Assembly: GCA_044433325.1 (NCBI GenBank)
Contig: JAWXTT010000001.1
Span: 1,470-65,469 of the forward strand
Length of the DNA stretch: 64,000 nt
From: Bacteroidales bacterium
GTDB lineage: Bacteria > Bacteroidota > Bacteroidia > Bacteroidales > Muribaculaceae
Direction of reading: 5' to 3'
Positions 5,537-56,800 of the stretch are shown here, piece by piece (position 1 is the stretch's first letter; every line of letters starts with the position of its first letter). The position numbers and the translations under genes were made by a program. The notes beneath the pieces are model-generated. The model was not told the DNA's origin. It saw nothing but the letters and a program-made list of their open reading frames with translations, and ran no database searches.

Positions 5537-6715
5537 ATGCGCATACTGTTATCAAATAAATTCTATTATCGTCGTGGTGGGGACTGCGTATGCACTATTA
5601 ATTTAGAGGAATTACTAAAGGAGCATGGTCACGAGGTAGCGATATTCTCGATGCAACATCCTGAGAATTTACCATCTAATTACTCTAAATATTTCCCATC
5701 AGAGGTTAGATTTAAATCCATTGGGGGGATATATAAAACCTTTACACGTCCATTTGGGAGCAAAGATGTCATCCAACGTTTCCAAGAACTTATTAATGAC
5801 TTTAAACCAGATATTATTCATCTACATAATATCCATACACAGCTATCCCCTATCATAGGTGAAGTTGCAGCAAAGAATGGTATTAAGGTAATATGGACAC
5901 TACATGACTATAAGCTGATATGCCCACGCTATGACTGCTTACGTAATGGAGAAGTGATATGTGAGGAGTGCTTCACAGATAAAAGCAAGGTACTTAAATA
6001 TAACTGTATGAAAAACTCTAAGATAGCTAGTAAGATAGCATATCGCGAAGCAATAACATGGAGCCGTGAACGACTTGAGGGTTTTACAACACATTTTATC
6101 GCTCCTAGCCAGTTTATGGCAGATAAGATGATACAAGCAGGTTTCTCGAAATCTAAGATAAATACTCTTTGTAACTTTATAGATATCGATAAAACCTTTA
6201 GAGAGGAATACGATAAGGGGGATTACTACTGTTTCATAGGTCGTCTTTCTCATGAAAAAGGGGTTAAAACATTGATTGAAGCGGCTAATCAACTACCATA
6301 CAAGCTAAAAGTAATAGGTGGTGGTGAGTTAATGGATGAGCTACGTGGGATTGCAAAAGCAAATATAGAGTTCGTTGGTTTCAAACAGTGGGACGAGATA
6401 AAAGAGATTGTAGGTAAAGCACGCTTTAGTGTAATTCCATCAGAGTGGTATGAAAATAACCCACTATCAGTTATTGAAGCTCAATGCTTAGGAACACCTG
6501 TACTAGGTGCTAAAATTGGAGGAATACCTGAACTTATTGAGAATAATATTAGCGGAATGATATTTGAAAGCCGCAACACAATAGATTTAAAACATGGTAT
6601 AGAAGCTATGTTTAAACAGAATTTTGATTATAGTGAATTAGCTAAAAACTCACAACATAGATATTCAGCATTAAATCACTATAATAATCTAATGAAGATA
6701 TACAATGAAGAGTAA
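5537..6715 (+). CDS. Glycosyltransferase family 4
   Basis: GRLSHEKGVKTLIEA, then an EX7E-type motif: EWYENNPLSVIEAQCLGTPVLGAKIGGIPELI. Confidence 0.8.
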   Translation: MRILLSNKFYYRRGGDCVCTINLEELLKEHGHEVAIFSMQHPENLPSNYSKYFPSEVRFKSIGGIYKTFTRPFGSKDVIQRFQELINDFKPDIIHLHNIHTQLSPIIGEVAAKNGIKVIWTLHDYKLICPRYDCLRNGEVICEECFTDKSKVLKYNCMKNSKIASKIAYREAITWSRERLEGFTTHFIAPSQFMADKMIQAGFSKSKINTLCNFIDIDKTFREEYDKGDYYCFIGRLSHEKGVKTLIEAANQLPYKLKVIGGGELMDELRGIAKANIEFVGFKQWDEIKEIVGKARFSVIPSEWYENNPLSVIEAQCLGTPVLGAKIGGIPELIENNISGMIFESRNTIDLKHGIEAMFKQNFDYSELAKNSQHRYSALNHYNNLMKIYNEE

Positions 6716-7790
6716 TATACCATCCCCAACAGATGCTAGTATTATACTAACATATCGCTGCCCTATGCGTTGTAAGATGTGTAATGTGTGGCAATTCCCT
6801 ACGGAGAAAAGTGCGGAGATTTCTGCCAAAGATTTAGAAACTCTACCTAAACTAAAGTTCATTAACTTAACAGGAGGAGAGCCATTTATCCGTGAGGATT
6901 TGGCTGATATTGTTGAAGAGTGCTACAAACACACTGAGCGTATTGTAATATCTACATCGGGTTGGTTTGAGGATAGAGTTATTGAGCTTGCTAAACGATT
7001 CCCTAATATAGGTATTCGCATATCTATCGAGGGGTTAAGCTGCAAGAATGATGAACTGCGTGGTCAAACAGGAGGCTTTGACAAGGGGTTACGCACCCTA
7101 TTAACACTAAAGAAGATGGGTTTAAAGGATATAGGTTTCGGTTGCACGGTTTCAAACAGCAACTCTAAGGATATGTTATCGTTATACCAACTAAGCCAAT
7201 CGCTAGGGATGGAGTTTGCGACAGCAGCTTTCCACAATTCATACTATTTCCATAAGAATGATAATGTAATCAGCAATAAGAGTGAGGTTACTCAAGATTT
7301 TGAGCAACTAATAGATTGGCAACTAAAGGAGAACTCACCTAAGAGCTGGTTCCGTGCATGGTTTAATATGGGATTAATCAACTATATCGAGGGGGGACGA
7401 CGTATGCTACCTTGTGAGGCTGGTTCTGCTAATTTCTTTATAGACCCATTTGGTGAAGTCTATCCATGTAACGGGTTGGAGGATAAATATTGGCAAAAGT
7501 CTATGGGCAATATTCATACAACACCTAACTTTATGGAGATTTGGGAGAGTGAACAAGCGCAAGAGGTGCGCGCCATGGTTCGCAAATGCCCTAAGAACTG
7601 TTGGATGGTAGGCACAGCTAGTCCAGTAATGCACAAATATATCAAATTTCCACTTAAATGGTCTATCCAGAATAAGCTACGTAGCATGCAGGGTAAATCA
7701 GCTTGCCTAGATAAAAAGTGGTGTGATGTTGGTCAAGACCCTACACAAGGAGATTTAAGGGAAGTTATAAAAACTGACCCTGGAAAATAA
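6705..7790 (+). CDS. Radical SAM enzyme with a twitch/SPASM-like C-terminal Cys motif, embedded in the glycan locus
   Basis: CxxxCxxC at YRCPMRCKMCNVW. C-terminal Cx12Gx4C (CEAGSANFFIDPFGEVYPC) followed by CPKNC. Overlaps the upstream GT gene by 11 nt. Confidence 0.8.
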   Translation: MKSNIPSPTDASIILTYRCPMRCKMCNVWQFPTEKSAEISAKDLETLPKLKFINLTGGEPFIREDLADIVEECYKHTERIVISTSGWFEDRVIELAKRFPNIGIRISIEGLSCKNDELRGQTGGFDKGLRTLLTLKKMGLKDIGFGCTVSNSNSKDMLSLYQLSQSLGMEFATAAFHNSYYFHKNDNVISNKSEVTQDFEQLIDWQLKENSPKSWFRAWFNMGLINYIEGGRRMLPCEAGSANFFIDPFGEVYPCNGLEDKYWQKSMGNIHTTPNFMEIWESEQAQEVRAMVRKCPKNCWMVGTASPVMHKYIKFPLKWSIQNKLRSMQGKSACLDKKWCDVGQDPTQGDLREVIKTDPGK

Positions 7791-14770: not shown

Positions 14771-15556
14771 ATGGAACTAAAAGATAACAATATAGATAAA
14801 CTATTTACAGAGATAGATAGCAATATCCTATCGGTATATTATCCAGCTGGATTTCCTAAGCTAGATAGCACAATGGAGGTACTTACTAAACTACAAAATG
14901 CAGGAGCTAACATGGTAGAGCTAGGGATTCCATTCTCAGACCCAATGGCTGATGGTGTTGTAATCCAAGAGGCTGCAAATAGAGCATTATGCAATGGTAT
15001 GTCGCTAAAATTACTATTTGAACAGATAGCTGATATGCGCGCTACCATTACCATCCCTGTAATTTTGATGGGATATATCAATCCAATTATGAAATTCGGA
15101 TTTGAGAACTTTTGCCGTAAATCAGCTGAAACAGGAGTAGATGGAGTAATTATCCCTGATATGCCATTTGAAGTTTATGAAACAGAGTATAAAGAGATAG
15201 CTAACAAATATGGTATCAAAGTAATAATGTTAATCACACCTGAAACATCTGATGCACGCATAGCTAAGATTGATGCAGCCACTAGCGGATTTATATATAT
15301 GGTATCAAGCGCATCAACAACAGGAGCAAAAAATGAGTTTGATCCTGCAACCATAGCATATTTCCAACGCATAGCAGCAATGAAACTGAGCAATAAACGC
15401 CTAATTGGGTTCGGTATATCTAACGTCAGCACATTCAATGCAGCATGCAACAACGCCAATGGAGCAATTATAGGTAGCCAATTCGTTAAACTACTAGCTA
15501 ACTCAGACACAATAGACACAGCAATCGCCACACTAAAGAGCAATATCGGAGTCTAA
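14771..15556 (+). CDS. trpA: Tryptophan synthase alpha chain
   Basis: VELGIPFSDPMADGVVIQ and GFGIS motifs. Last gene of the operon. Confidence 0.93.
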   Translation: MELKDNNIDKLFTEIDSNILSVYYPAGFPKLDSTMEVLTKLQNAGANMVELGIPFSDPMADGVVIQEAANRALCNGMSLKLLFEQIADMRATITIPVILMGYINPIMKFGFENFCRKSAETGVDGVIIPDMPFEVYETEYKEIANKYGIKVIMLITPETSDARIAKIDAATSGFIYMVSSASTTGAKNEFDPATIAYFQRIAAMKLSNKRLIGFGISNVSTFNAACNNANGAIIGSQFVKLLANSDTIDTAIATLKSNIGV

Positions 15557-15608
15557 ACACCCTTTGAAAGTTTAGAATACACTCTAAACTTTTAAATAAT
15601 CGCCTAAA

Positions 15609-15675
15609 GTTTTGGTTGTACTCTAAACTTCCACTCAAATTATGAAAAGTTTAGAGTACAACCAAAACATTTTTT
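15609..15675 (+). terminator. Intrinsic terminator after trpA (very long stem)
   Basis: A perfect 22-bp stem (15609-15630 pairs with 15647-15668), a 16-nt loop, then A and T6 at 15670-15675. Confidence 0.75.
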
Positions 15676-15687
15676 ATAAGTCAAAAT

Positions 15688-15960
15688 TTAATTCATCTCT
15701 GGATCTGAGCGACGAACACCAAAACCTGTATGCACATTAGCAATTTCGGTCTTCGTCACCTGCTAATTACCACTGAGGAGATTCCACCTCAGCCAGGCTG
15801 TACAAAATCACCCACATTAGCTTCAACTACATTCTTTGCAGTAGTCATCCATTCCAACGCATTGATGTGACAATAACTTGTGGAAACTCAATCATATTAT
15901 CCTCATCTATGCCTACTATATAGCTCTGACGATGATGAACTAACCAACCCTACAACATAT
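15688..15960 (-). pseudogene. Decayed coding remnant of unknown family
   Basis: Minus-strand translation gives protein-like stretches in shifting frames (VHHRQSYIVGIDEDNMIEFPQVIVTSMRWNG / TTAKNVVEANVGDFVQPG / QVTKTEIANVHTGFGVRRSDPEMN-stop at 15688-15690), broken by stops. The track has no ORF of 60 aa or more here. Confidence 0.3.
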
Positions 15961-16078
15961 CTTTTTACCTCAAATTTTACTTAAAACACAAATATAACAC
16001 ACAAAAACAAATCCTACAATTACCCAAAATTGTCATTTTAAGTATCAGATAAAATATAATAACTTTGATCAAAAAAAC

Positions 16079-17281
16079 ATGACAAGTTTAAAGGTGAAAT
16101 TTAGGCCATCTACAATAGAAGGGAAAGAGGGAATCATATACTATCAAATTATTCATAACAGAGTGATAAGACAACTTAGAACTACTTATAAAATTTTCTC
16201 AGAAGAGTGGGACGATCTCTTATCACAGGTTGTTTTATCAATATATCGAGAGGATAGAACTTCACATATCTTAACCATTAAAGAGAGTATCAAAATGGAT
16301 CTAAAAAGATTGTCTAAAATAATAGAATTATTGAATAATGCAGGTACATATACTTGTGAGGATGTTATTTCTGCATTTGAGATGTCAATAAAAGGAGAAA
16401 TGCTCTTTAATTATATGCAGAAAATGGTAAACCGATTGATACAACTTCGCAAATATAGGACATCAGAAACATATAAAACTACTCTTAATAGTTTTATTCG
16501 GTTTAGAAAAGGGGAAAATATTATGATTACAGATATTTCCTCAGATTTAATAATGGATTATGAAGCCTATCTAAAAGGAGAAGGATTAACTATGAACACA
16601 GTCTCATTCTATATGCGGATACTTAGAGCCGTATATAATCGAGCCGCGGAGGACGATTTAGTTGAACAAAAATTCCCTTTTAAAAAGGTATATACAGGGG
16701 TGGATAAGACTATTAAACGAGCGCTTCCTCTTAAAGATATAAAGCGGATTAAAGAATTAGATTTATCACTTGCACCAGAATTAATATTTGCACGTGACAT
16801 GTTTCTATTTAGTTTCTATACACGTGGCATGTCATTTGTTGATATGGCATATCTTCAAAAAAAGGACTTAGTAAATGGAGTTATAACATATCGTAGGCGG
16901 AAAACTGGACAACTTCTACATATCAAATGGGAATGTTGTATGCAAAAAATTTTAAATCTTTATCCTCCATTAGAAACCAAATACTTATTGCCAATAATCC
17001 GAGATAAGGATAAAAATGACCGAGCACAATATATAAACGCACTAAACAAGGTTAATAATAAACTAAAAAAGATTGGAGAAATGATAGGACTTACAATGCC
17101 ATTAACCCAATATGTTGCACGACATTCTTGGGCATCAGTTGCTAAGAGCAAACACATACCTATCGCTGTAATTTCAGAAGGGATGGGACACGATTCAGAG
17201 ACAACTACTCAAATATACTTAGCTTCACTTGACACATCAATTGTTGACAAAGCTAATAATTTAATCCTCAAGTCGCTCTAA
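16079..17281 (+). CDS. Tyrosine site-specific recombinase (Bacteroides-type integrase with N-terminal Arm DNA-binding domain)
   Basis: N-terminus KVKFRPSTIEGKEGIIYYQIIHNR is typical of Bacteroidetes integrases. The C-terminal catalytic region has ARHSWAS and GHDSETTTQIYL (nucleophile Tyr). Confidence 0.85.
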   Translation: MTSLKVKFRPSTIEGKEGIIYYQIIHNRVIRQLRTTYKIFSEEWDDLLSQVVLSIYREDRTSHILTIKESIKMDLKRLSKIIELLNNAGTYTCEDVISAFEMSIKGEMLFNYMQKMVNRLIQLRKYRTSETYKTTLNSFIRFRKGENIMITDISSDLIMDYEAYLKGEGLTMNTVSFYMRILRAVYNRAAEDDLVEQKFPFKKVYTGVDKTIKRALPLKDIKRIKELDLSLAPELIFARDMFLFSFYTRGMSFVDMAYLQKKDLVNGVITYRRRKTGQLLHIKWECCMQKILNLYPPLETKYLLPIIRDKDKNDRAQYINALNKVNNKLKKIGEMIGLTMPLTQYVARHSWASVAKSKHIPIAVISEGMGHDSETTTQIYLASLDTSIVDKANNLILKSL

Positions 17282-17305
17282 ATAGTCCTATTCTGTTTTT
17301 TTAAC

Positions 17306-17328
17306 ATCTCTATCCAAGAGATAATTTT
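17306..17328. repeat. Inverted repeat, left arm (ATCTCTATCCAAGAGATAATTTT)
   Basis: Exact reverse complement of 17472-17494. It contains an internal dyad, ATCTC...GAGAT. Confidence 0.9.
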
Positions 17329-17334
17329 ATAATA

Positions 17335-17366
17335 CAAAATTACGGAATATATTATAATATAACAAA
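17335..17366 (-). promoter_or_regulatory. Bacteroides-type promoter inside the invertible core, currently facing the recombinase gene (OFF for the operon)
   Basis: The minus strand reads TTTG-(20 nt)-TAATTTTG (plus-strand CAAA at 17363-17366, CAAAATTA at 17335-17342). After inversion it would map to about 17434-17465 on the plus strand, roughly 70 nt upstream of the ATG at 17537. Confidence 0.6.
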
Positions 17367-17471
17367 TAATCGTAAAAATTATTTTTACACTAACTCTACA
17401 TGTCACATTAAGTTTAGTAAAAAAAATATATAAAATGGCTTTTAACTGCATTTTAAGCGTGATTATTGTTG

Positions 17472-17494
17472 AAAATTATCTCTTGGATAGAGAT
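17472..17494. repeat. Inverted repeat, right arm (AAAATTATCTCTTGGATAGAGAT)
   Basis: Exact reverse complement of 17306-17328. Confidence 0.9.
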
Positions 17495-17536
17495 AATAAC
17501 ACATTTAAATAAATTTATTTAATAACCACAACTAAT

Positions 17537-18670
17537 ATGATACAAAAACCAAAGACAACACGAATTATAGCATTGATGCTAACATATTCTTGTAATCTAA
17601 ACTGTGTGTATTGTTTTGAAAAGCACAAATCAAATGATCCTTCGAAACGTATGACATTTGAAATTGCCAGAGAAATAATAGAAAAAGAGTTCTCGGCATT
17701 TCAAGAATCAGGAGATAAAGGGTCACTAAAAGTTGACTTCTTCGGAGGTGAACCACTTCTTAATTTTGGACTTATTAAAAGACTGGCAGAATGGATTTGG
17801 GAACAAGATTTTAAAATAAACTATGTACTATCAGTAACGACAAACGGCTCATTACTCAATGACAACATGAAAGAATGGTTCACTGAACATAAAGAACATT
17901 TTAGATTAATACTGTCAGTAGATGGAAATGAGCATATGCAAATGAACAATAGAGGGTGTAGCCAAGAAGCTCTTCCTATTGATTTCGTAAGACAAACTTG
18001 GCCAGACCTATATCTTAAGATGACAATGGGACGTGATTCCTTACCTACTTTTGCGGATGGTTTAATATACCTTTGTGAAAAGGGTTATAATGTATCTGGA
18101 AGTATTGCTATTGGTGAAAAATGGACACATGATGACGCTATGATATATAAGGAGCAACTTGAAAAAATAGCTGATTATTATCTATCACATCCAAATGTCA
18201 CACCAACTCACCTTTTTAACAGAATCTGGGGTGAGATGCTAAATCCTGTATATGAAACTGAGTTACCTCCAAAAAATTGTGGGACAGGGACTACAATGGC
18301 TGCATACGATGTTGATGGATATCCATATCCTTGCCACTTATTTCTTCCAATCGTACACGGTAAAGAGATTAGAGAAGACCTGAAAAAAATTGATTTTTTT
18401 GATAAGGAAAGGATGATTGATGAAGAATGTAGAAAATGTGGACTATTAAAAATATGTAGAACCTGCTATGGATATAACTACATTGAGAGGGGTGATGTGA
18501 ACAAGAGAGATAAATGCTTATGCGAAATGTTACTTGTAGAGGCAATTGTAATCAGCGCATTCCAAATTAATTACCTAATGCAAAGAAAAGATAGCTTGGA
18601 TTCAGAACAGTTGTTGGCACTTAAAGCAGCTATTCGCTGTTATGAGACATACAAAGATTTTAAATTCTAA
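17537..18670 (+). CDS. Radical SAM / SPASM-domain peptide maturase
   Basis: CxxxCxxC at residues 19-26 (YSCNLNCVYCFEK). The C-terminus has Cx12Gx4C (CGTGTTMAAYDVDGYPYPC), then CRKCGLLKICRTC and a later CLC, which is the SPASM auxiliary-cluster pattern. Immediately upstream of three small Cys-rich ORFs. Confidence 0.85.
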   Translation: MIQKPKTTRIIALMLTYSCNLNCVYCFEKHKSNDPSKRMTFEIAREIIEKEFSAFQESGDKGSLKVDFFGGEPLLNFGLIKRLAEWIWEQDFKINYVLSVTTNGSLLNDNMKEWFTEHKEHFRLILSVDGNEHMQMNNRGCSQEALPIDFVRQTWPDLYLKMTMGRDSLPTFADGLIYLCEKGYNVSGSIAIGEKWTHDDAMIYKEQLEKIADYYLSHPNVTPTHLFNRIWGEMLNPVYETELPPKNCGTGTTMAAYDVDGYPYPCHLFLPIVHGKEIREDLKKIDFFDKERMIDEECRKCGLLKICRTCYGYNYIERGDVNKRDKCLCEMLLVEAIVISAFQINYLMQRKDSLDSEQLLALKAAIRCYETYKDFKF

Positions 18671-18705
18671 GCTATATATTTATTAACTATTAAATTTTTA
18701 CAATT

Positions 18706-18849
18706 ATGAAATTAGAAAATTCATTACTTGAGCAAGCGAACGAGTTGCTAAATGTTAATCAAGAGAACATCTCAAAGACTGAGACTGAAACAGTTTCTGT
18801 AAGTTGCTCTGGATGTGGAGCAGGATGTTCTGGTATAGTCGGAGACTAG
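18706..18849 (+). CDS. RiPP precursor peptide 1 (47 aa): MKLENSLLEQANELLNVNQENISKTETETVSVSCSGCGAGCSGIVGD
   Basis: ATG at 18706, TAG at 18847-18849. Not in the ORF track because it is under 60 aa. First of three tandem paralogs with a helical leader-like N-terminus and an invariant Cys/Gly/Ser core. Confidence 0.8.
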   Translation: MKLENSLLEQANELLNVNQENISKTETETVSVSCSGCGAGCSGIVGD

Positions 18850-18875
18850 TTACTAACATTAAATTGACAACAATT

Positions 18876-19022
18876 ATGAAATTGGAAAATTCATTGCTTG
18901 AACAAGCTAATGATTTGCTTGATGCAAATCAAGAGAGTATTGCTAAAACAGAGATTCCAAGTAGCATTAGTTGGAGTTGCTCTGGGTGCGGAGCTGGTTG
19001 CTCTGGAATTGTGGGAGATTAA
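18876..19022 (+). CDS. RiPP precursor peptide 2 (48 aa): MKLENSLLEQANDLLDANQESIAKTEIPSSISWSCSGCGAGCSGIVGD
   Basis: This is the in-frame ATG at codon 25 of the listed 18804..19022 ORF. The core is identical in amino acids to copy 1 despite 9 synonymous codon changes. Confidence 0.8.
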   Translation: MKLENSLLEQANDLLDANQESIAKTEIPSSISWSCSGCGAGCSGIVGD

Positions 19023-19061
19023 GAGCTCCTTAGTTATTAACATTTAATAAACCTTTGAACT

Positions 19062-19205
19062 ATGAAACTTGAAAATTCATTACTTCAGCAGGCTACAGAA
19101 CTGCTAAATGCGAATCAAGAAAACATTTCAAAAACACTTACAGAAACAGTTTCAGTAAGTTGTTCTGGATGTGGAGCAGGATGCTCTGGTATAATCGGAG
19201 ACTAA
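19062..19205 (+). CDS. RiPP precursor peptide 3 (47 aa): MKLENSLLQQATELLNANQENISKTLTETVSVSCSGCGAGCSGIIGD
   Basis: ATG at 19062, TAA at 19203-19205. Not in the ORF track. The core differs from copy 1 only by V to I. Confidence 0.8.
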   Translation: MKLENSLLQQATELLNANQENISKTLTETVSVSCSGCGAGCSGIIGD

Positions 19206-19222
19206 TTCTGTAACTTCTCATC

Positions 19223-19288
19223 GTGAGTCCTCTAACCTTTGAATGTTACTACAATCAAAGTAGGGGACTCGCTTTATAATACTTTTTT
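19223..19288 (+). terminator. Imperfect hairpin plus U-rich tract between the precursor genes and ycaO (possible partial terminator or processing site)
   Basis: 19223-19242 pairs with 19255-19272 (18 pairs including 2 G-U, two 1-nt bulges, 12-nt loop). It is followed by TTTATAATACTTTTTT, which runs into the ATG at 19289. Confidence 0.4.
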
Positions 19289-21097
19289 ATGAAACCTTAT
19301 AAATCTAAATCTCCTCTTGAAACTATAAATAATATTAGAGGGATATTATCAGATATCGGTATTTTTACAACCGAAAATCACATATCATATAGCGATCTTT
19401 TTTGCTCTTGTCGAGTTATTATTGATGACAATATTCAGGGACTTGACATTGGAACAAATGGAAAAGGTATGAATACACAATATGCTTTAGCTAGTGCATA
19501 TGGTGAGATGATGGAACGACTTCAGAATAGAATGTTAGGTTTTGCTGTGATGAAGTTTACAACATCTAGCGTTTTGAAAGATAATCCAAATTTAGAACCT
19601 CTTTATAATATGCTTTCAGCTGAGGGTCTCGTTGGTGATTTCAGGTATTATCCAGACGAGAAGGAGTATTCAGTCTCAAAATCAGAGCTATTAAAACAAG
19701 TTGAAAAATTCTTACCCAATATTTATGGTGTAGATAATGAATCTATACTAAAAAGTAATAAGTATAAATTAATTGAAGCTCCATTTTTCAATGTAAATTC
19801 ACAAAAAGTGGAAAATGTACCTTTATTCTTATTTAGACTAGCAGCAAGTTCTACAGGACTTTGTGCTGGGAATACACCTCAAGAGGCTATACTGCAAGGC
19901 TTGAATGAAATATTTGAAAGATATGTTCTCCAAAGATTATATGTAGAAAAAGTAACACCTCCTACAATTCCCGCAACATATTTTAAAGGAACAAATATAG
20001 TAGCACGACTTGAAAAATTACGACTAACTAAGAACGTTTATTATGAAATAAAAGATTGTTCTCTTGATGGGAAATACCCTGTTATTGGATTACTCCTAAT
20101 TGACAGATCGAATAATACATATGCCTTTAGACTTGGGGCTGACGCTAGTCCTATCATTGCACTTGAAAGGTGCTATACCGAGGCTTTTCAAGGAGTTAAA
20201 GATATCAAGAACCATTTTAGACCAATTAACTTTAATGATTCTTTCGATATTAAACTTGAACACGACAATAATGTTGTAAATGGATCGGGAAAATTCCCTA
20301 ATGAACTATTTCTAAATAAACCATCATATGATTTTAAAGGTTTTGTCTTTAGTGGAAAAGAGTCTGATGAAGCTGAATTAAAATACTATATAAAACATAT
20401 AGAAAATTTAGGATACACTACGTATGTCCGAGATAATTCATTCTTAAACTTCCCTGCATATACTATATTTATACCTGGTCTTTCAGACATATCGGGAGAA
20501 TTGTTAGATTTCTACCAACATTTAGAAGATGCTAATTGCACTTATTCTGCGTTAAAACCTGCATATAATATAAAAAGCCTTAATGATGACGAATTAGTGA
20601 ATTATGCAGCAACTATTGAGAATAATAGTTCTAACAATATATCTCTATTCCCTTATTATATAGGACTACACAATAACATCAATAAGCATCTACTATTGAT
20701 GGGGATCTATTTCAAAACTGGGAATATTCACAAAGCATATAAAAACATGTCCATCTTTTTGACTCATAATGAAAGAACTGGCATATCACAATCAAATTAT
20801 TACTATGCAATTAGAGATTATCTATATTGGAAAAGCAAAGATAAACATGCTAATACTATCACGAGTATTTTATCCAGATTCTATGGTGAGAAAATAGCAG
20901 ATGAAGTAACAACAGATTTAGCAGATCCATCTAAAATATTAGATAATTTTAAGTTCCCTCAGTGTTTTGATTGTCAGAATTGCCCAGCTAGATCAGAGTG
21001 TAAATTCATTGAAATGGTACGAATGGAAAACCGTATCCAAAAAATATTTAAAAGTAATTTGAAAGATCAAATTAATCTAGAAGAGATATTTAAATAG
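19289..21097 (+). CDS. YcaO-domain protein, stand-alone E. coli-YcaO-like architecture (602 aa)
   Basis: N-terminal region ...DIGTNGKGMNTQYALASAYGEMMERLQNR matches the YcaO ATP/Mg-binding signature (compare E. coli NGKGATKKAALASALGEYFERL). It has a long helical TPR-like C-terminal half, and the C-terminus is ...LEEIFK with no PxPxP motif. Confidence 0.8.
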   Translation: MKPYKSKSPLETINNIRGILSDIGIFTTENHISYSDLFCSCRVIIDDNIQGLDIGTNGKGMNTQYALASAYGEMMERLQNRMLGFAVMKFTTSSVLKDNPNLEPLYNMLSAEGLVGDFRYYPDEKEYSVSKSELLKQVEKFLPNIYGVDNESILKSNKYKLIEAPFFNVNSQKVENVPLFLFRLAASSTGLCAGNTPQEAILQGLNEIFERYVLQRLYVEKVTPPTIPATYFKGTNIVARLEKLRLTKNVYYEIKDCSLDGKYPVIGLLLIDRSNNTYAFRLGADASPIIALERCYTEAFQGVKDIKNHFRPINFNDSFDIKLEHDNNVVNGSGKFPNELFLNKPSYDFKGFVFSGKESDEAELKYYIKHIENLGYTTYVRDNSFLNFPAYTIFIPGLSDISGELLDFYQHLEDANCTYSALKPAYNIKSLNDDELVNYAATIENNSSNNISLFPYYIGLHNNINKHLLLMGIYFKTGNIHKAYKNMSIFLTHNERTGISQSNYYYAIRDYLYWKSKDKHANTITSILSRFYGEKIADEVTTDLADPSKILDNFKFPQCFDCQNCPARSECKFIEMVRMENRIQKIFKSNLKDQINLEEIFK

Positions 21098-21099
21098 TA

Positions 21100-21822
21100 A
21101 TGAAAACAAATTACCATACACACACAAAGCGGTGCAAACATGCTTTTGGAGAGGATGAGGAATACGTAAAAAGTGCTATAAAGGGAGGATATAGCATATT
21201 GGGGTTTGCTGATCATACCCCATGGCCATATTTAAAGAAAAATAGTTCAAGTATTAGAATGGAGACAAATCAGCTACCTGAATATGTTTCATCGATAATA
21301 TTTCTAAAAGAACGATTTGAGAATCAGATTGATATTAAAATCGGTTTAGAATGCGAATTTATTGAGAGATATACAACTTGGTTATCAGAGGTAAAGGAGC
21401 AATACAAATTAGACTATCTTCTTTTTGGCAACCACTATCCGTTTGGGGAGAGAGGCCCTCTTTACACATCAAAAGACCATAGGCTATATACGCACAGAGC
21501 CATAAAGGCTATGCAAACAGGAATATATGACTGTATAGCACATCCAGAGATATTGTATAGAGGGTCAGAAATAAGCTCTGTAGATAAAGAGTATTTTAGA
21601 GAGCTATCTCGTGCTGCAAAATATTTGAATATTATTATGGAGTATAACACCTGTTATAAATTCAAGCGAGATCTCTGGGAGATTGTCGCACAAGAGGATT
21701 GTAAAGTGATTATTGGGTTAGATGCACACAAGCCTGAGACTCTTGAAGATGATTCAATATACACAATGGCATTAGCAAATATGAAATCTGTCGGTATTGT
21801 ACCTATAACAAATTTGAAGTAG
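21100..21822 (+). CDS. PHP-domain metal-dependent phosphoesterase (HisJ/histidinol-phosphatase family)
   Basis: N-terminal MKTNYHTHTKRCKHA (HxH metal motif), GFADHTP and GLDAHKP. Confidence 0.7.
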   Translation: MKTNYHTHTKRCKHAFGEDEEYVKSAIKGGYSILGFADHTPWPYLKKNSSSIRMETNQLPEYVSSIIFLKERFENQIDIKIGLECEFIERYTTWLSEVKEQYKLDYLLFGNHYPFGERGPLYTSKDHRLYTHRAIKAMQTGIYDCIAHPEILYRGSEISSVDKEYFRELSRAAKYLNIIMEYNTCYKFKRDLWEIVAQEDCKVIIGLDAHKPETLEDDSIYTMALANMKSVGIVPITNLK

Positions 21823-21827
21823 AGATT

Positions 21828-22565
21828 ATGGGAAATAAAGGGTATAAAAAAGAGATGTGCAATATTTATAGCAAAGAGGGTCAATTCAACTTTGAACAAA
21901 ATCTATTTGAAAATTTTACAAAATATAGCAATGAACATAATATAGTTTACCGAACACATACAGATTTGGGCTGTGGTCTAGGTTATTTTACAGAGTTGAT
22001 GAATAGTCGTGGCATTACTAGTCGTGGTATTGATTTGTCAGAGACTATGATTGAAATGGCAAAATCTAAATTTAGCAACAATTATTATGTTGGAGATATT
22101 TGCAACGTCAAATTACCTAATCCTGTTGATTTAATAACTTGTAATCACAATACAATAAATCATTTGAATACACTTGATAAATGGAAGGAATTTATGCTTA
22201 ATGCCTATTACAATTTATCACAAGAGGGGTATCTGTTGTTTGACTTCAATACGATAGATTATATAGAGACAGTAAGCCACTTTAGTTATAGTCAGTTAAA
22301 CCCCAATCTAGACATCATAAAAATTGTGATACCCAATAATAACTATCAATTACAATTTAGATATATTTTCTATAGTAAGCAGAAAAATGAGTATTACACT
22401 AAAAATATAGAGTCGATTTTAATAACATGTTTTAAAACAACAGATATATTTAAACTAATTACCGAATGTGGATTTAATATACATACCACATGGGATAATC
22501 AATTTAATGAATGCCAGATAGATACAAAAACAATTAGATTTTATATTTTGGCAAATAAACGATAA
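21828..22565 (+). CDS. Class I SAM-dependent methyltransferase
   Basis: Motif I DLGCGLGYFTELM, followed by GIDLSETMIEMA. 245 aa. Confidence 0.75.
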   Translation: MGNKGYKKEMCNIYSKEGQFNFEQNLFENFTKYSNEHNIVYRTHTDLGCGLGYFTELMNSRGITSRGIDLSETMIEMAKSKFSNNYYVGDICNVKLPNPVDLITCNHNTINHLNTLDKWKEFMLNAYYNLSQEGYLLFDFNTIDYIETVSHFSYSQLNPNLDIIKIVIPNNNYQLQFRYIFYSKQKNEYYTKNIESILITCFKTTDIFKLITECGFNIHTTWDNQFNECQIDTKTIRFYILANKR

Positions 22566-22668
22566 AACATTAATATTTTTAGAAAAGGGCTGAGATAGAA
22601 TTATTTTGAAAAAGGCTCTATTCTTTAGATTTTAAAATATCTACAACAATTTAAACACATCTTTTACA

Positions 22669-23541
22669 ATGAAAAACTACAAATTTAATTGGGGAATTAT
22701 CCCCAAAAACAAAGAAGATTTATCGATACTTGTTATAGGCAATAGCTTTTCTTATCAGGTTTTCGGTTTTTGGAATTCGGATATTTTTGTACCCGGAGGA
22801 ATGATTGAGAACTCTACTCATAAGGGTATATATCAGGATTATATTGCTGTTGGTGATCAAACCTATGATAGATGGCTGTCTGACATAGAGAATAAAACAA
22901 CTAATTATTATAATTTAAAAGATAAACTCAATGAGCGACACTGGGACATAATTTGTATGTTGAATACATCTGCTAATTGGGACCCACAACATAACTACCC
23001 ACTGATAGAAATGTTTGCGCAATGGATAAGAGATAATAATAGTAATAAAGATGTTGCCTTTTTTATTTATGCTTCGCCTTCAAGACCTGGAGCTTGTCCC
23101 AAAAATATATACTGTGATAGCACAAAAGAGTTTGAGTTAATAAATGAGGGGTTCCGTACTCTCTCAACAACATATAATATCCCAGAATCAAGAATAATTC
23201 CGGGATCTACTGCTATGCAATATTTACGAAAAACATATCCACAACCAGACGATAAAGAGCTAACAATAGACTATCTACATCCCCAATTCGGATTACCTAT
23301 TTTAGCGACAGGTATAACAAGCTTTATGACAATTATAGGACAAGTGTTCGATAATATTGATTTTGACTGTATCTCTAAAAATATAGTTAGTAACTACAAA
23401 GATAATGATGAATGCAATTTATCTAAGTCAACCCCAAAAGATTTACTTCTTGAAAGCACATTTTTCATAAATATTGATGATAGTAATAGAGCTTATGCTA
23501 TCTCTGCTGCAAAATATGCATTAGCAAATAAATTTAAGTAG
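22669..23541 (+). CDS. SGNH/GDSL-like hydrolase-fold protein (DUF4886-like), tentative
   Basis: The N-terminal block ILVIGNSFSYQ resembles the DUF4886/SGNH block I. Otherwise uncharacterised. Confidence 0.4.
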   Translation: MKNYKFNWGIIPKNKEDLSILVIGNSFSYQVFGFWNSDIFVPGGMIENSTHKGIYQDYIAVGDQTYDRWLSDIENKTTNYYNLKDKLNERHWDIICMLNTSANWDPQHNYPLIEMFAQWIRDNNSNKDVAFFIYASPSRPGACPKNIYCDSTKEFELINEGFRTLSTTYNIPESRIIPGSTAMQYLRKTYPQPDDKELTIDYLHPQFGLPILATGITSFMTIIGQVFDNIDFDCISKNIVSNYKDNDECNLSKSTPKDLLLESTFFINIDDSNRAYAISAAKYALANKFK

Positions 23542-23930
23542 GGAATGATGCATTTTCTTTATGCTCTAATTTACATTATATGTAGATAAAATACAATTAT
23601 GATAAAGAGAGGGCAGATCAAAAGAAATAATAATTTTACTTATTGCTGAGGATTGACCCAAAAGTCCTTAAACCAGAGAAACAACCCTTTCTACAATCTA
23701 TGTAGCAAGGGTTATTCATGTAAAACAGATAATTTGGGGGCTTCCTCATATTAGGGTAAAATATGCCATATTTTTCAGGACTATCGCGTAATACACTTAT
23801 AAGTAATTGGGCGTTAACCTAATAGATTAACGCCCAATCGAGTCAAATATTAATACCAATTAAATAACTAACTTCACAGCCAGTGCTTGCGTCTCATGTT
23901 AATTTAAAGTTTTATATCTTTAGTTTTATA

Positions 23931-38902: not shown

Positions 38903-39229
38903 TTACTCAATAGCAATCACCTCAAGTAGCAACTTATGGTGACGCTCAAAGAAACGTCTGAATTTATATAGGGTTAAATTATTAGGGTTATCCTCTACCA
39001 TTTGACCAGCTAAAGTAGTAAATCGTTTTAAATCGGCTGACAATTTATCAAGAGCTGACTGCTCATTAAAATTAGGATGTCGTAAATGTGTATAATGAAC
39101 TAGTGCAAAAGTAGTATAGAATCTACGCAACTCATCATCAGTTAGGTTAAACATCGAAACCTCCTTCATCTCAATCATACATTTGTCATGCTGAACTTGA
39201 TTCAGCACCTTTTCAGTTCCCTCTTCCAT
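38903..39229 (-). CDS. Hypothetical small protein; true start may be M18 (39178), M21 or M26 (39154)
   Basis: 108-aa ORF with no motif I recognise. Its similarity to the upstream mini-ORF begins at MFNLTD (M26), which suggests a shorter product. Confidence 0.45.
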   Translation of the reverse strand: MEEGTEKVLNQVQHDKCMIEMKEVSMFNLTDDELRRFYTTFALVHYTHLRHPNFNEQSALDKLSADLKRFTTLAGQMVEDNPNNLTLYKFRRFFERHHKLLLEVIAIE

Positions 39230-39299
39230 CTCCCATTAGTTTAAGTGTTAATAATAATAACAGGTCTTTAGGAATAAAAAAAGCGATTCCGTCTAACCC

Positions 39300-39445
39300 G
39301 TTGAACTACACCATAACAGCAGTGGGTACATTAATACTCCACACGGAGACGAAACCGCCGTATGGAATGAGCTAGGTACAAAATTAAAATTGCACCTAAA
39401 TCGAATAATAGCAGGTTTCCCAGCTGTTATGGTATGTAGTTCAAC
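39300..39445 (-). ncRNA. Candidate structured RNA of unknown class (sRNA or cis-leader)
   Basis: A 21-bp closing helix (39300-39320 pairs with 39423-39445, with a 2-nt bulge) encloses UGGG/CCCA pairing and at least two hairpins (UAGGUGC-N12-GUACCUA; CCAUAC...GUGUGG). A full-consensus promoter ends 2 nt upstream on the minus strand, and a U7 tract follows at 39276-39282. Confidence 0.5.
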
Positions 39446-39446
39446 A

Positions 39447-39478
39447 CAAAAGTAATTAAAGAAACCGAGACCACCAAA
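39447..39478 (-). promoter_or_regulatory. Bacteroides-type promoter driving the structured RNA
   Basis: The minus strand reads TTTG-(20 nt)-TACTTTTG (plus-strand CAAA at 39475-39478, CAAAAGTA at 39447-39454). Confidence 0.6.
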
Positions 39479-39515
39479 AGAATACAAGATTCATATCACA
39501 AATTATAGAGAAAGT

Positions 39516-39599
39516 CTAATTAGCATTAATCAACTCAAGCGATTGCTTATGGCGATACTCAAAGAAACCTCTGTCATACCAATCAGTAATATTTACCAT
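39516..39599 (-). pseudogene. 27-codon internally deleted paralog of the 38903..39229 gene (MVNITDWYDRGFFEYRHKQSLELINAN)
   Basis: Its N-terminus MVNITD matches MFNLTD. Its C-terminus FFEYRHKQSLELINAN-stop matches FFERHHKLLLEVIAIE-stop of the downstream gene. It is preceded by a copy of the same 19-nt motif. Confidence 0.4.
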
Positions 39600-39608
39600 G
39601 CTAAGTAT

Positions 39609-39654
39609 ATCCACATTTGTCATTCTGAATAAGTTCAGAATGACAAATGTGGAT
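39609..39654. repeat. Perfect 21-bp-stem palindrome built from two inverted copies of the 19-nt motif
   Basis: 39609-39629 pairs with 39634-39654 around a 4-nt loop. The arms CCACATTTGTCATTCTGAA / TTCAGAATGACAAATGTGG resemble 39177-39195 and 39661-39679. It may also terminate the 39697..40254 gene. Confidence 0.8.
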
Positions 39655-39696
39655 TGTTAATTCAGCATGACAAATGTATATATTTTTGACATGACA

Positions 39697-56654: not shown

Positions 56655-56800
56655 TCTTCTACAATTTATTTAAATTGTGGAATTAATATTAAACTGCTCA
56701 GAAAAATTCTTAGAAAAATGTGTATTTGATTATCTCAGTTTTAGCATTTTTTCAAGTGGTTGCAAGCAGTCAAATTTCTCCACTAATATTTTAACTAGCG

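Follow-up and report, generated by a model that had tools for sequence, protein, structure and literature searches.

In the Bacteroidales, an invertible promoter paired with an adjacent tyrosine invertase of the Tsr type is a known kind of switch (Jiang et al. 2019, as reported in PMC8748976). The invertases ride on conjugative or mobilizable elements, and the cargo that directly follows the invertible region is highly variable (Yan, Hall & Jiang 2022, PMC8748976). Here, we analyse a gene cassette in a 64,000 nt stretch of contig JAWXTT010000001.1 (GCA_044433325.1) from a member of the Muribaculaceae; this stretch is called the window below, and coordinates are window positions unless a contig is named. 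The cassette shares with the described Bacteroidales invertons a local tyrosine recombinase, an inverted-repeat (IR) element of approximately 185–190 bp, a TAnnTTTG promoter, a same-strand operon and mobile carriage. It differs in what is carried: the described cargos are capsule/glycan loci, fimbriae, SusC/D-like systems, S-layer, resistance genes and the type VI secretion system, whereas here the element precedes a peptide-modification operon encoding a radical S-adenosylmethionine (rSAM) enzyme, three short precursor peptides and a YcaO protein. We found no paper in the literature linking invertons to biosynthetic gene clusters, and PMC11602134 makes no mention of them. Our preferred reading, to which we give a probability of roughly two in three, is that this is a horizontally acquired cassette in which an invertible promoter gates an operon making a three-cysteine peptide modified by the rSAM and YcaO enzymes.

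The operon has described counterparts of its own among the RiPPs, peptides that are made on ribosomes and then altered post-translationally. Like the ranthipeptide/SCIFF systems (CteB, Tte1186) and freyrasin (PapB), it places a SPASM rSAM enzyme beside short cysteine-rich precursors, and like SCIFF it has a highly conserved core and no linked transporter. Unlike them, its precursors carry three cysteines in a CxxCGxGC arrangement rather than six cysteines or Cys-X3-Asp repeats, its rSAM lacks a RiPP recognition element (RRE) and scores far under the family cut-offs, and most of its loci include a YcaO as an integral partner. E. coli YcaO, whose thioamidation of ribosomal protein uL16 was demonstrated in 2026 (PMC13063428), has the same two-domain fold and ATP/Mg motifs and also stands alone, without a TfuA or E1-like partner; the protein here differs in being only approximately 21% identical and less acidic, with an extra Cys4 motif and an operon containing a candidate peptide substrate. 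Non-acidic members of the E. coli YcaO group sit in RiPP contexts (PMC13063428). A mining study of the Bacteroidales reports areas with both rSAM and YcaO genes, together with the itf cluster ItfA/ItfB/ItfD (Clark & Seyedsayamdost 2022, as described in PMC10352776). Compared by that description, itf is likewise a Bacteroidales RiPP cluster combining a YcaO with a SPASM rSAM, but its GG leaders, PCAT exporter, outer-membrane protein and C-terminal amidine at Thr-Phe have no equivalent here. The CXXX-repeat system supplies the second-best model for the rSAM, and one copy of Parabacteroides distasonis type lies behind a homologous recombinase and inverton; however, the score is under the cut-off of 350 and the peptides here have no CXXX repeats, signal peptide or Pfam match. 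In sum, the operon resembles a ranthipeptide/SCIFF system joined to an E. coli-type YcaO, while failing the curated thresholds of every named family tested.

The cassette lies between trpA and gltD. Open reading frame (ORF) mapping and domain scans recovered every gene listed in a first-pass annotation of this DNA, which had proposed a phase-variable RiPP system. Its features are as follows.

16079–17281, plus strand: tyrosine site-specific recombinase, putative local invertase, 400 aa (Pfam Phage_int_SAM_5, Phage_integrase and Arm-DNA-bind_5).
17306–17494, no strand: 189-bp candidate invertible element (IR-L 17306–17328, 143-bp interior, IR-R 17472–17494).
17335–17366, minus strand: Bacteroides-type promoter TTTG-N20-TAATTTTG (−33 at 17363–17366, −7 at 17335–17342; regular-expression scan).
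17537–18670, plus strand: radical SAM/SPASM maturase, CteB/PapB-like, 377 aa (Pfam Radical_SAM, NCBIfam, alignment to CteB).
18706–18849, plus strand: precursor peptide A, 47 aa, core SCSGCGAGCSGIVGD (ORF, core under purifying selection).
18876–19022, plus strand: precursor peptide B, 48 aa from ATG, core SCSGCGAGCSGIVGD (ORF).
19062–19205, plus strand: precursor peptide C, 47 aa, core SCSGCGAGCSGIIGD (ORF).
19223–19272, plus strand: RNA hairpin followed by a U-rich tract, likely attenuator or stabilizer (folding energy against shuffles).
19289–21097, plus strand: YcaO, 602 aa, E. coli-type two-domain (PF02624, 1.4e-40).
21100–21822, plus strand: PHP-domain phosphoesterase, HisJ-like, 240 aa (PF02811; histidinol phosphatase 2YXO).
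21828–22565, plus strand: class I SAM-dependent methyltransferase, 245 aa (Methyltransf_11 and _25).
22669–23541, plus strand: DUF4886 protein, SGNH-like, 290 aa (PF16227, 34.3 bits).

The two repeats are perfect for exactly 23 bp and lie 143 bp apart, IR-L starting 25 bp beyond the recombinase stop codon, which bears out the 189-bp element annotated at first pass. The 23-bp sequence has two sites only in the 64 kb, with no match of any kind in 100 shuffles, and a scan of the whole window returned this as the only IR pair of at least 20 nt with a spacer above 100 bp not attributable to gene duplication (the tandem peptide genes). Each arm contains an internal dyad, ATCTCT-ATCCA-AGAGAT. A miniature inverted-repeat transposable element or dispersed repeat was ruled out, the repeat being confined to this site in the 64 kb with no target-site duplication evident. 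The layout is that of an inverton, with IRs around a segment of approximately 100–300 bp beside a site-specific recombinase gene and an internal promoter facing the operon in one orientation alone.

The sole full Bacteroides consensus promoter of the region is the minus-strand copy just inside the recombinase-proximal repeat, which is aimed at the recombinase 3′ end and away from the operon; ahead of the operon as assembled there is no consensus promoter. Because the consensus promoter points away, we read the window as showing the OFF state, and on this reading the operon is OFF as assembled. When the segment is inverted in silico, the promoter moves to 17434–17465 of the plus strand, and 71 nt then separate it from the rSAM ATG. 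The recombinase-adjacent inverton upstream of a same-strand operon and the full-consensus promoter between the repeats had both been recognized at first pass; left unstated was that this promoter is on the minus strand and faces the recombinase. Homologous −7 boxes occupy the same place and orientation in the elements of four related contigs (L086, L057, L112 and L117), and in a fifth, L093, we read by eye a minus-strand TATGTTTG just inside the recombinase-proximal repeat. In the element of L055 the best −7 box is a plus-strand one and the minus-strand box is degenerate; this element was not used to argue orientation. A scan for sigma-70-type promoters and terminators, which does not cover Bacteroides promoters, gave counts not above those of shuffles.

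Evidence that such elements invert comes from relatives. In a metagenome-assembled genome from the Rikenellaceae (L086), the block from recombinase to YcaO is collinear with window positions 16053–21020 at 75% nucleotide identity. Its element is again 189 bp with perfect 23-bp repeats; five of the 23 positions differ from those in the window, and each difference is mirrored in the other arm. Compensated changes of this kind mark sites whose identity is maintained by recombination or selection. Twenty-one contigs carrying this Rikenellaceae orthologue were compared. One of them, Logan contig L124 (SRR27046595), starts with CAGCCGA followed by IR-R and the rSAM flank, which is exactly the junction that flipping would create: 110 of 110 positions agree with the ON model, 6 of its 7 interior bases mismatch the OFF arrangement, and no OFF contig contains its ON-specific 31-mer. 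The overhang of 7 nt past the repeat equals 31 − 23 − 1, as expected for Logan contigs built from a de Bruijn graph with k = 31. In this graph, k-mers seen only once are discarded (PMC12424806). A further contig of the orthologue, L123, starts at the first base of IR-R.

A second case involves a more distant recombinase (60% identity) of P. distasonis type. Contigs L117 and L118 are identical for 4268 nt through IR-L, and from there on each is the exact reverse complement of the other's interior end, so that this 185-bp element, with its −7 box in the same position, has been assembled in both orientations in different metagenomes. A degenerate-repeat scan of JGI metagenome contigs gave only one match, which lies in an unrelated region that looks coding and is put down to chance. 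We conclude that the switch is very likely to be real, the support for inversion coming from relatives and not from the window's own locus.

Turning to the cargo, the three tandem genes of 47–48 aa noted at first pass appear genuine. The 15-codon cores of precursors A and B differ by nine synonymous and no non-synonymous nucleotides, a pattern repeated across orthologues, which indicates that these small ORFs are real genes with cores under purifying selection. The family core is CxxCGxGCSG[IT]VG[DG], with a variant HCSxCTNCSGIVGD, and the leader is of the MKV-E-LL-EA type. To count co-occurrence, 80 genome loci with a YcaO were retrieved and an rSAM of at least 47% identity was taken as orthologous. 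Of the 80 loci, 12 have a peptide ORF. Eleven of these are the full set of loci in which an orthologous rSAM is accompanied by enough sequence to reveal a peptide; the twelfth is L015, a short contig truncated at the expected position of the rSAM. In L017 the rSAM is present and the contig ends before the peptide position. The 67 YcaO loci without an orthologous rSAM have no peptide ORF at all. It had been foreseen that relatives might consistently lack a small cysteine-rich ORF; instead, the peptide is present in every informative rSAM-bearing locus, and its gene and those of the orthologous rSAM/YcaO pair that it adjoins are arranged in three different orders.

The family has the general make-up of RiPP precursors, being short, with a variable leader and conserved core, and adjacent to and co-evolving with the enzymes. 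A profile search returned at least 154 peptide clusters at 90% identity, in which every name given by the source is 'hypothetical protein' and the remainder are unnamed; several clusters are found on hundreds of gut metagenome contigs, including those of Alistipes communis and Odoribacter. Six diverse members gave no Pfam or NCBIfam match even at E = 10 (noise only), and no match to the core motif strings turned up in the searchable literature. The initial impression that this precursor family is not a described RiPP class therefore holds, as there is no curated model for it and no description was found in that literature. Taken together, the comparisons make a sound case that the rSAM/precursor/YcaO trio is a conserved, co-evolving unit of RiPP type.

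The rSAM has the motif CX3CX2C (C18-X3-C22-X2-C25). Full-length matches were obtained to the models for PapB (NF047865; 139.8 bits, cut-off 340), the CXXX-repeat maturase (TIGR04115, whose peptide is PF27846; 121.4 bits, cut-off 350) and the SCIFF maturase (TIGR03974; 95.7 bits, cut-off 425), all below threshold. The nearest solved structure is CteB (5WGG), aligned over residues 94–437 with the SPASM cysteines in register. Of the domains expected from the first-pass annotation, YcaO and Radical_SAM were found, while no match to the Pfam SPASM model was reported for the rSAM even though its SPASM cysteines align to those of CteB. Compared with ranthipeptide maturases, it has the CX3CX2C motif and SPASM cysteines, and falls short of the curated equivalog cut-offs and of an RRE. 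The enzyme most likely converts precursor cysteines into thioether crosslinks, which could be of either the sacti type (alpha-carbon) or the ranthi type (non-alpha).

The YcaO is of E. coli type in architecture. An AlphaFold2 model (pLDDT 92) superposes on EcYcaO over its full length with a TM score of 0.74–0.77 (approximately 620 columns), and the ATP/Mg motifs (SxxxExxER and ExxER-type) are conserved when compared with 4Q84. Identity to E. coli YcaO is only approximately 21%; the strong acidity of that protein is missing (predicted isoelectric point 6.1 versus 4.4) and the score against the E. coli-type equivalog NF040716 is 165.6 bits for a cut-off of 700. No TfuA domain was detected in a Pfam scan of the nine cassette proteins at E up to 0.01. 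Past the end of the match to the E. coli-type models lies a C-terminal CxxCxxCx5C motif (C559/C562/C565/C571; window 20963–21001), invariant in 28 of 28 aligned YcaO homologues, which may be a Zn or Fe-S site.

Close orthologues of this YcaO (72–74% identity) occur in richer clusters. One such cluster, on L091 (1194–9809), has a YcaO of 74% identity with two SPASM-type rSAM genes, the same type of precursor, a B12-binding rSAM and an M42 peptidase, and a gene for a MiaB/RimO-like methylthiotransferase lies directly upstream of ycaO; there is an old link between E. coli YcaO and RimO. The other, on L093, has a PHP gene next to the orthologous ycaO that is present but broken, and an orthologue of the methyltransferase. 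A homologue in Bacteroides ovatus, which has no recombinase and a degraded rSAM gene, was uninformative.

The PHP and methyltransferase genes are recurrent but accessory on this distribution: both are found on L093, and the closest inverton-bearing relative (L086) is without either. It also lacks DUF4886, for which no homologue was seen in any related locus examined, making it unique to this species within that set. The DUF4886 gene follows the methyltransferase gene after a 103-bp gap, and its membership of the operon is uncertain. The protein has a GNSFS block near its N-terminus, and its family is, we presume, a member of the SGNH clan. The PHP, methyltransferase and SGNH-like genes reported in the string at first pass are thus present, as accessory components missing from the closest inverton-bearing relative. 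In some relatives, additional genes encode an M42 peptidase, or holin-like and YtxH membrane proteins. Between the gene for precursor C and ycaO, the hairpin at 19223–19272 has a folding energy of −27.5 kcal/mol (z = −6.15), reached by none of 200 shuffles, and L088 has a hairpin-like sequence of different letters in the same place (by eye). Hairpins after precursor genes are usual where precursor transcripts must outnumber enzyme transcripts, and this one probably sets a high precursor-to-enzyme transcript ratio. Rfam gave no match within the cassette. A role in anti-phage defence was considered and rejected, PADLOC having returned generic domain overlaps alone (rSAM core with viperin, methyltransferase with mad2).

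We propose the following scheme. The local tyrosine invertase would flip the 189-bp promoter-bearing segment at the 23-bp repeats. In the OFF state, transcription from the promoter would enter the recombinase gene at its 3′ end, leaving the operon silent; in the ON state, the promoter would lie approximately 71 nt upstream of the rSAM gene and drive the operon, with transcription predicted to begin near 17472, within IR-R. Three near-identical precursors would be made, each with a leader of approximately 32 aa and a 15-aa core bearing three invariant cysteines. The CteB/PapB-like rSAM would form thioethers from these cysteines, and the E. coli-type YcaO would then activate a backbone amide with ATP, most probably yielding a thioamide and less probably an azoline or amidine. 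The methyltransferase, PHP and DUF4886 proteins may tailor or process the peptide in a lineage-specific way. The modified peptide would be produced in a subpopulation or minority of cells only, where it could serve as a toxin, a signal or a metal/redox peptide.

Several observations weigh against this reading. All seven sequences available for this species (the window and six independent Logan contigs) are in the OFF orientation, and the flipped junction in the Rikenellaceae orthologue extends a mere 7 nt beyond the repeat. The majority orientation in every family member examined has the promoter towards the recombinase, which suggests that switching may be rare. The rSAM is without an N-terminal RRE, since its alignment to CteB begins with query residue 6 already paired with residue 94. 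Among the cassette ORFs, we found none for a transporter, a leader peptidase or an immunity protein. The core is strongly conserved, being almost invariant across the Rikenellaceae, Bacteroidaceae, Tannerellaceae and Odoribacteraceae, which is atypical of antimicrobial RiPPs. Finally, A. communis contigs from human gut metagenomes (L100–L109, approximately 5816–7141) carry the rSAM and a peptide with core GCFGCGLGCSDTVGG and no adjacent YcaO, so the YcaO step is not universally required and the rSAM-peptide pair is the minimal unit. For the population heterogeneity suggested by the first-pass annotation, this means support from relatives (L124; L117 and L118) and no flipped copy among the seven sequences of this species. 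Its 'peptide natural product' likewise stands in part: the RiPP-type unit is there, while a secreted product was an assumption, given a cassette with no transporter, protease or immunity gene.

The explanation that competes best with our reading accepts the switch and differs over the product, which would stay intracellular or cell-associated, for instance with a regulatory role like that of SCIFF, a redox or metal-binding function (CxxCxxxC perhaps providing ligands) or a role as cofactor precursor. The lack of transporter, peptidase and immunity genes, combined with the near-invariant core in four families, argues against a classical bacteriocin and makes a SCIFF-like signal or metal/redox peptide a serious alternative. 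The rSAM counts the SCIFF maturase among its nearest relatives, and we know of no antibiotic role for the SCIFF peptide. The A. communis pair occupies a fixed chromosomal context, with genes for SufE, an Fe-S assembly protein and a ferredoxin/nitroreductase on its upstream side and secA downstream of it, and this position beside SufE and Fe-S assembly genes points the same way. Against this, phase variation and mobile carriage are typical of costly or externally visible traits, the three tandem precursors and the hairpin after them suggest high-level production, and some relatives encode the M42 peptidase or the holin-like and YtxH membrane proteins. On balance we regard an internal role as somewhat unlikely.

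A further alternative concerns the chemistry. Cys, Ser and Gly are abundant in the core, whose GCSG string is also present in microcin B17; in addition, there are weak matches to the BerA thiazolyl peptide model (E = 0.0028 and 0.11). The YcaO might thus form thiazolines or thiazoles from the three cysteines, as in thiazole/oxazole-modified microcins (TOMMs), leaving the rSAM to do something other than thioether formation. However, the YcaO scores 42.1 bits against the SagD family model (TIGR03604) for a cut-off of 219.25, and the cassette has neither an E1-like/Ocin-ThiF partner nor an FMN dehydrogenase. The YcaO also lacks the C-terminal PxPxP motif that marks azoline-forming YcaOs. The model fits LynD, TruD and McbD poorly (query-normalized TM 0.34–0.45, versus approximately 0.75 to EcYcaO), and MusD and the methanogen thioamide synthases also give much poorer fits. 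We therefore consider the TOMM-like scheme improbable. Of the azol(in)e, thioamide and amidine chemistries envisaged at first pass, a TOMM-type azoline former is disfavoured, and the E. coli YcaO architecture, for which thioamidation is the only established reaction, leaves a thioamide as the likeliest single product at a little under even odds; an azoline is unlikely, and an amidine or other product takes up the rest.

The origin of the cassette bears on the last alternative. GC content is 29–35% in the cassette and 37–41% in the trp and glt flanks (window 15500–23900), with 31–33% and 38–40% as narrower figures. Such a difference fits a module acquired horizontally as a whole, and a MobC-relaxase pair upstream of the recombinase in three relatives fits the same history. 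No relaxase or MobC remnant was detected upstream of the cassette in the window. The recombinase belongs to a family that is very large in the Bacteroidales; its catalytic-region motifs TRGMSFVDMAYL, YRRRKTGQ, ARHSWAS and GMGHDSETTTQIY are identical in the 60%-identical homologue of L117, the one whose element has been assembled in both orientations, and this identity is a further argument that the window's element inverts. A search for integrase attachment (att) sites gave no direct repeats of at least 13 bp linking the two island borders. The low GC, the preceding MobC and relaxase genes of relatives, the NCBI name 'site-specific integrase' given to homologues, the single orientation in all seven sequences of this species and a conserved TAAnTTTAG block inside the element, as a possible weak plus-strand −7 box, could also be explained if the recombinase were mainly the integrase of a small mobilizable island, with the IR segment a relic or binding region and the operon silent or transcribed from a non-consensus promoter, but this is the least probable of the explanations considered, since no att-like direct repeats flank the island, perfect repeats compensated between species are the pattern of ongoing recombination and not of a relic, flipped junctions are seen for both an orthologue and a homologue, and published invertases occur on mobile elements without being the element's integrase (PMC8748976).

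Related modules were found ahead of other cargos. On L117 (4251–4435) and L118 (4251–4305), of P. distasonis type, the order is DUF3408-MobC-relaxase-X-recombinase-185-bp inverton-CXXX-repeat peptide (twin-arginine-like signal)-rSAM. Alistipes contigs L112–L116 (approximately 4251–4435 in L112 coordinates) have MobC-relaxase-X-recombinase (59% identity), then a 185-bp IR element and a DUF3575/DUF5119/Mfa-like fimbrial operon; all five show the promoter-towards-recombinase orientation. In these loci a TTTGTTTAGCAAAA-like block occurs once just outside IR-L and once inside the element, and may be an arm-type or accessory binding site. L057, from the Muribaculaceae, has a 59%-identical recombinase and a 188-bp IR element (1831–2018), followed by UpxY/NusG-like, JAB, ThiF and SH3 genes and a truncated rSAM gene; a second IR-flanked element of 181 bp (7419–7599) lies just upstream of a cysteine-rich 109-aa ORF, a YcaO and a methyltransferase. 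The recombinase/inverton module thus also precedes the CXXX-repeat peptide/rSAM pair (L117), an rSAM/B12-rSAM/rSAM/YcaO cluster (L055) and a UpxY-JAB-ThiF-rSAM-YcaO cluster (L057), suggesting that the theme recurs.

Other features of the window were noted in passing. Directly after trpA and before the cassette, three 27-nt palindromic units of the type AAAGTTTAGA..TCTAAACTTT, spaced by 39–40 nt (15563–15672), may be stacked terminators or a REP-like (repetitive extragenic palindromic) repeat marking the island border. A perfect 19-bp IR pair (39177–39195 and 39661–39679, 465 bp apart) accompanies a perfect 21-bp hairpin (39609–39654) with the motif ACATTTGTCAT[GT]CTGAA, which it shares with the IR pair. 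Both are associated with the intergenic region 39230–39696 between two minus-strand ORFs, have no Rfam match, and could represent a second invertible segment or a structured RNA. The sole Rfam match in the window is a SAM-II riboswitch (RF01726) at 56731–56789 on the minus strand (66.2 bits, gathering score 44), outside the cassette.

The wider possibility raised by this locus is that production of a new class of modified peptide, with rSAM thioethers and a YcaO thioamide, is gated by an inverton and confined to a minority of cells, and that the same family of switch independently gates other rSAM/YcaO and CXXX-repeat clusters as a general, hitherto unremarked strategy in the gut. The precursor family is widespread among gut Bacteroidales, common human Alistipes included. 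We put this forward tentatively, as a conjecture that is more doubtful than the reading of the cassette itself. Until now, the known role of invertible promoters in gut Bacteroidales has been to diversify surface structures, with resistance genes a more recent addition. If the conjecture is right, phase variation would extend to secondary metabolism, and a possibly toxic, signalling or costly peptide would be a bet-hedged trait of a subpopulation. This would help to explain why such clusters seem silent in culture and in bulk transcriptomes, and locking the promoter in the ON orientation would offer a route to their activation. The precursor/rSAM/YcaO trio is in any case a large family without a curated model, and because the peptide chemistry of E. 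coli-type YcaOs is not yet established, it would provide a tractable test of what stand-alone E. coli-like YcaOs do outside the ribosome.

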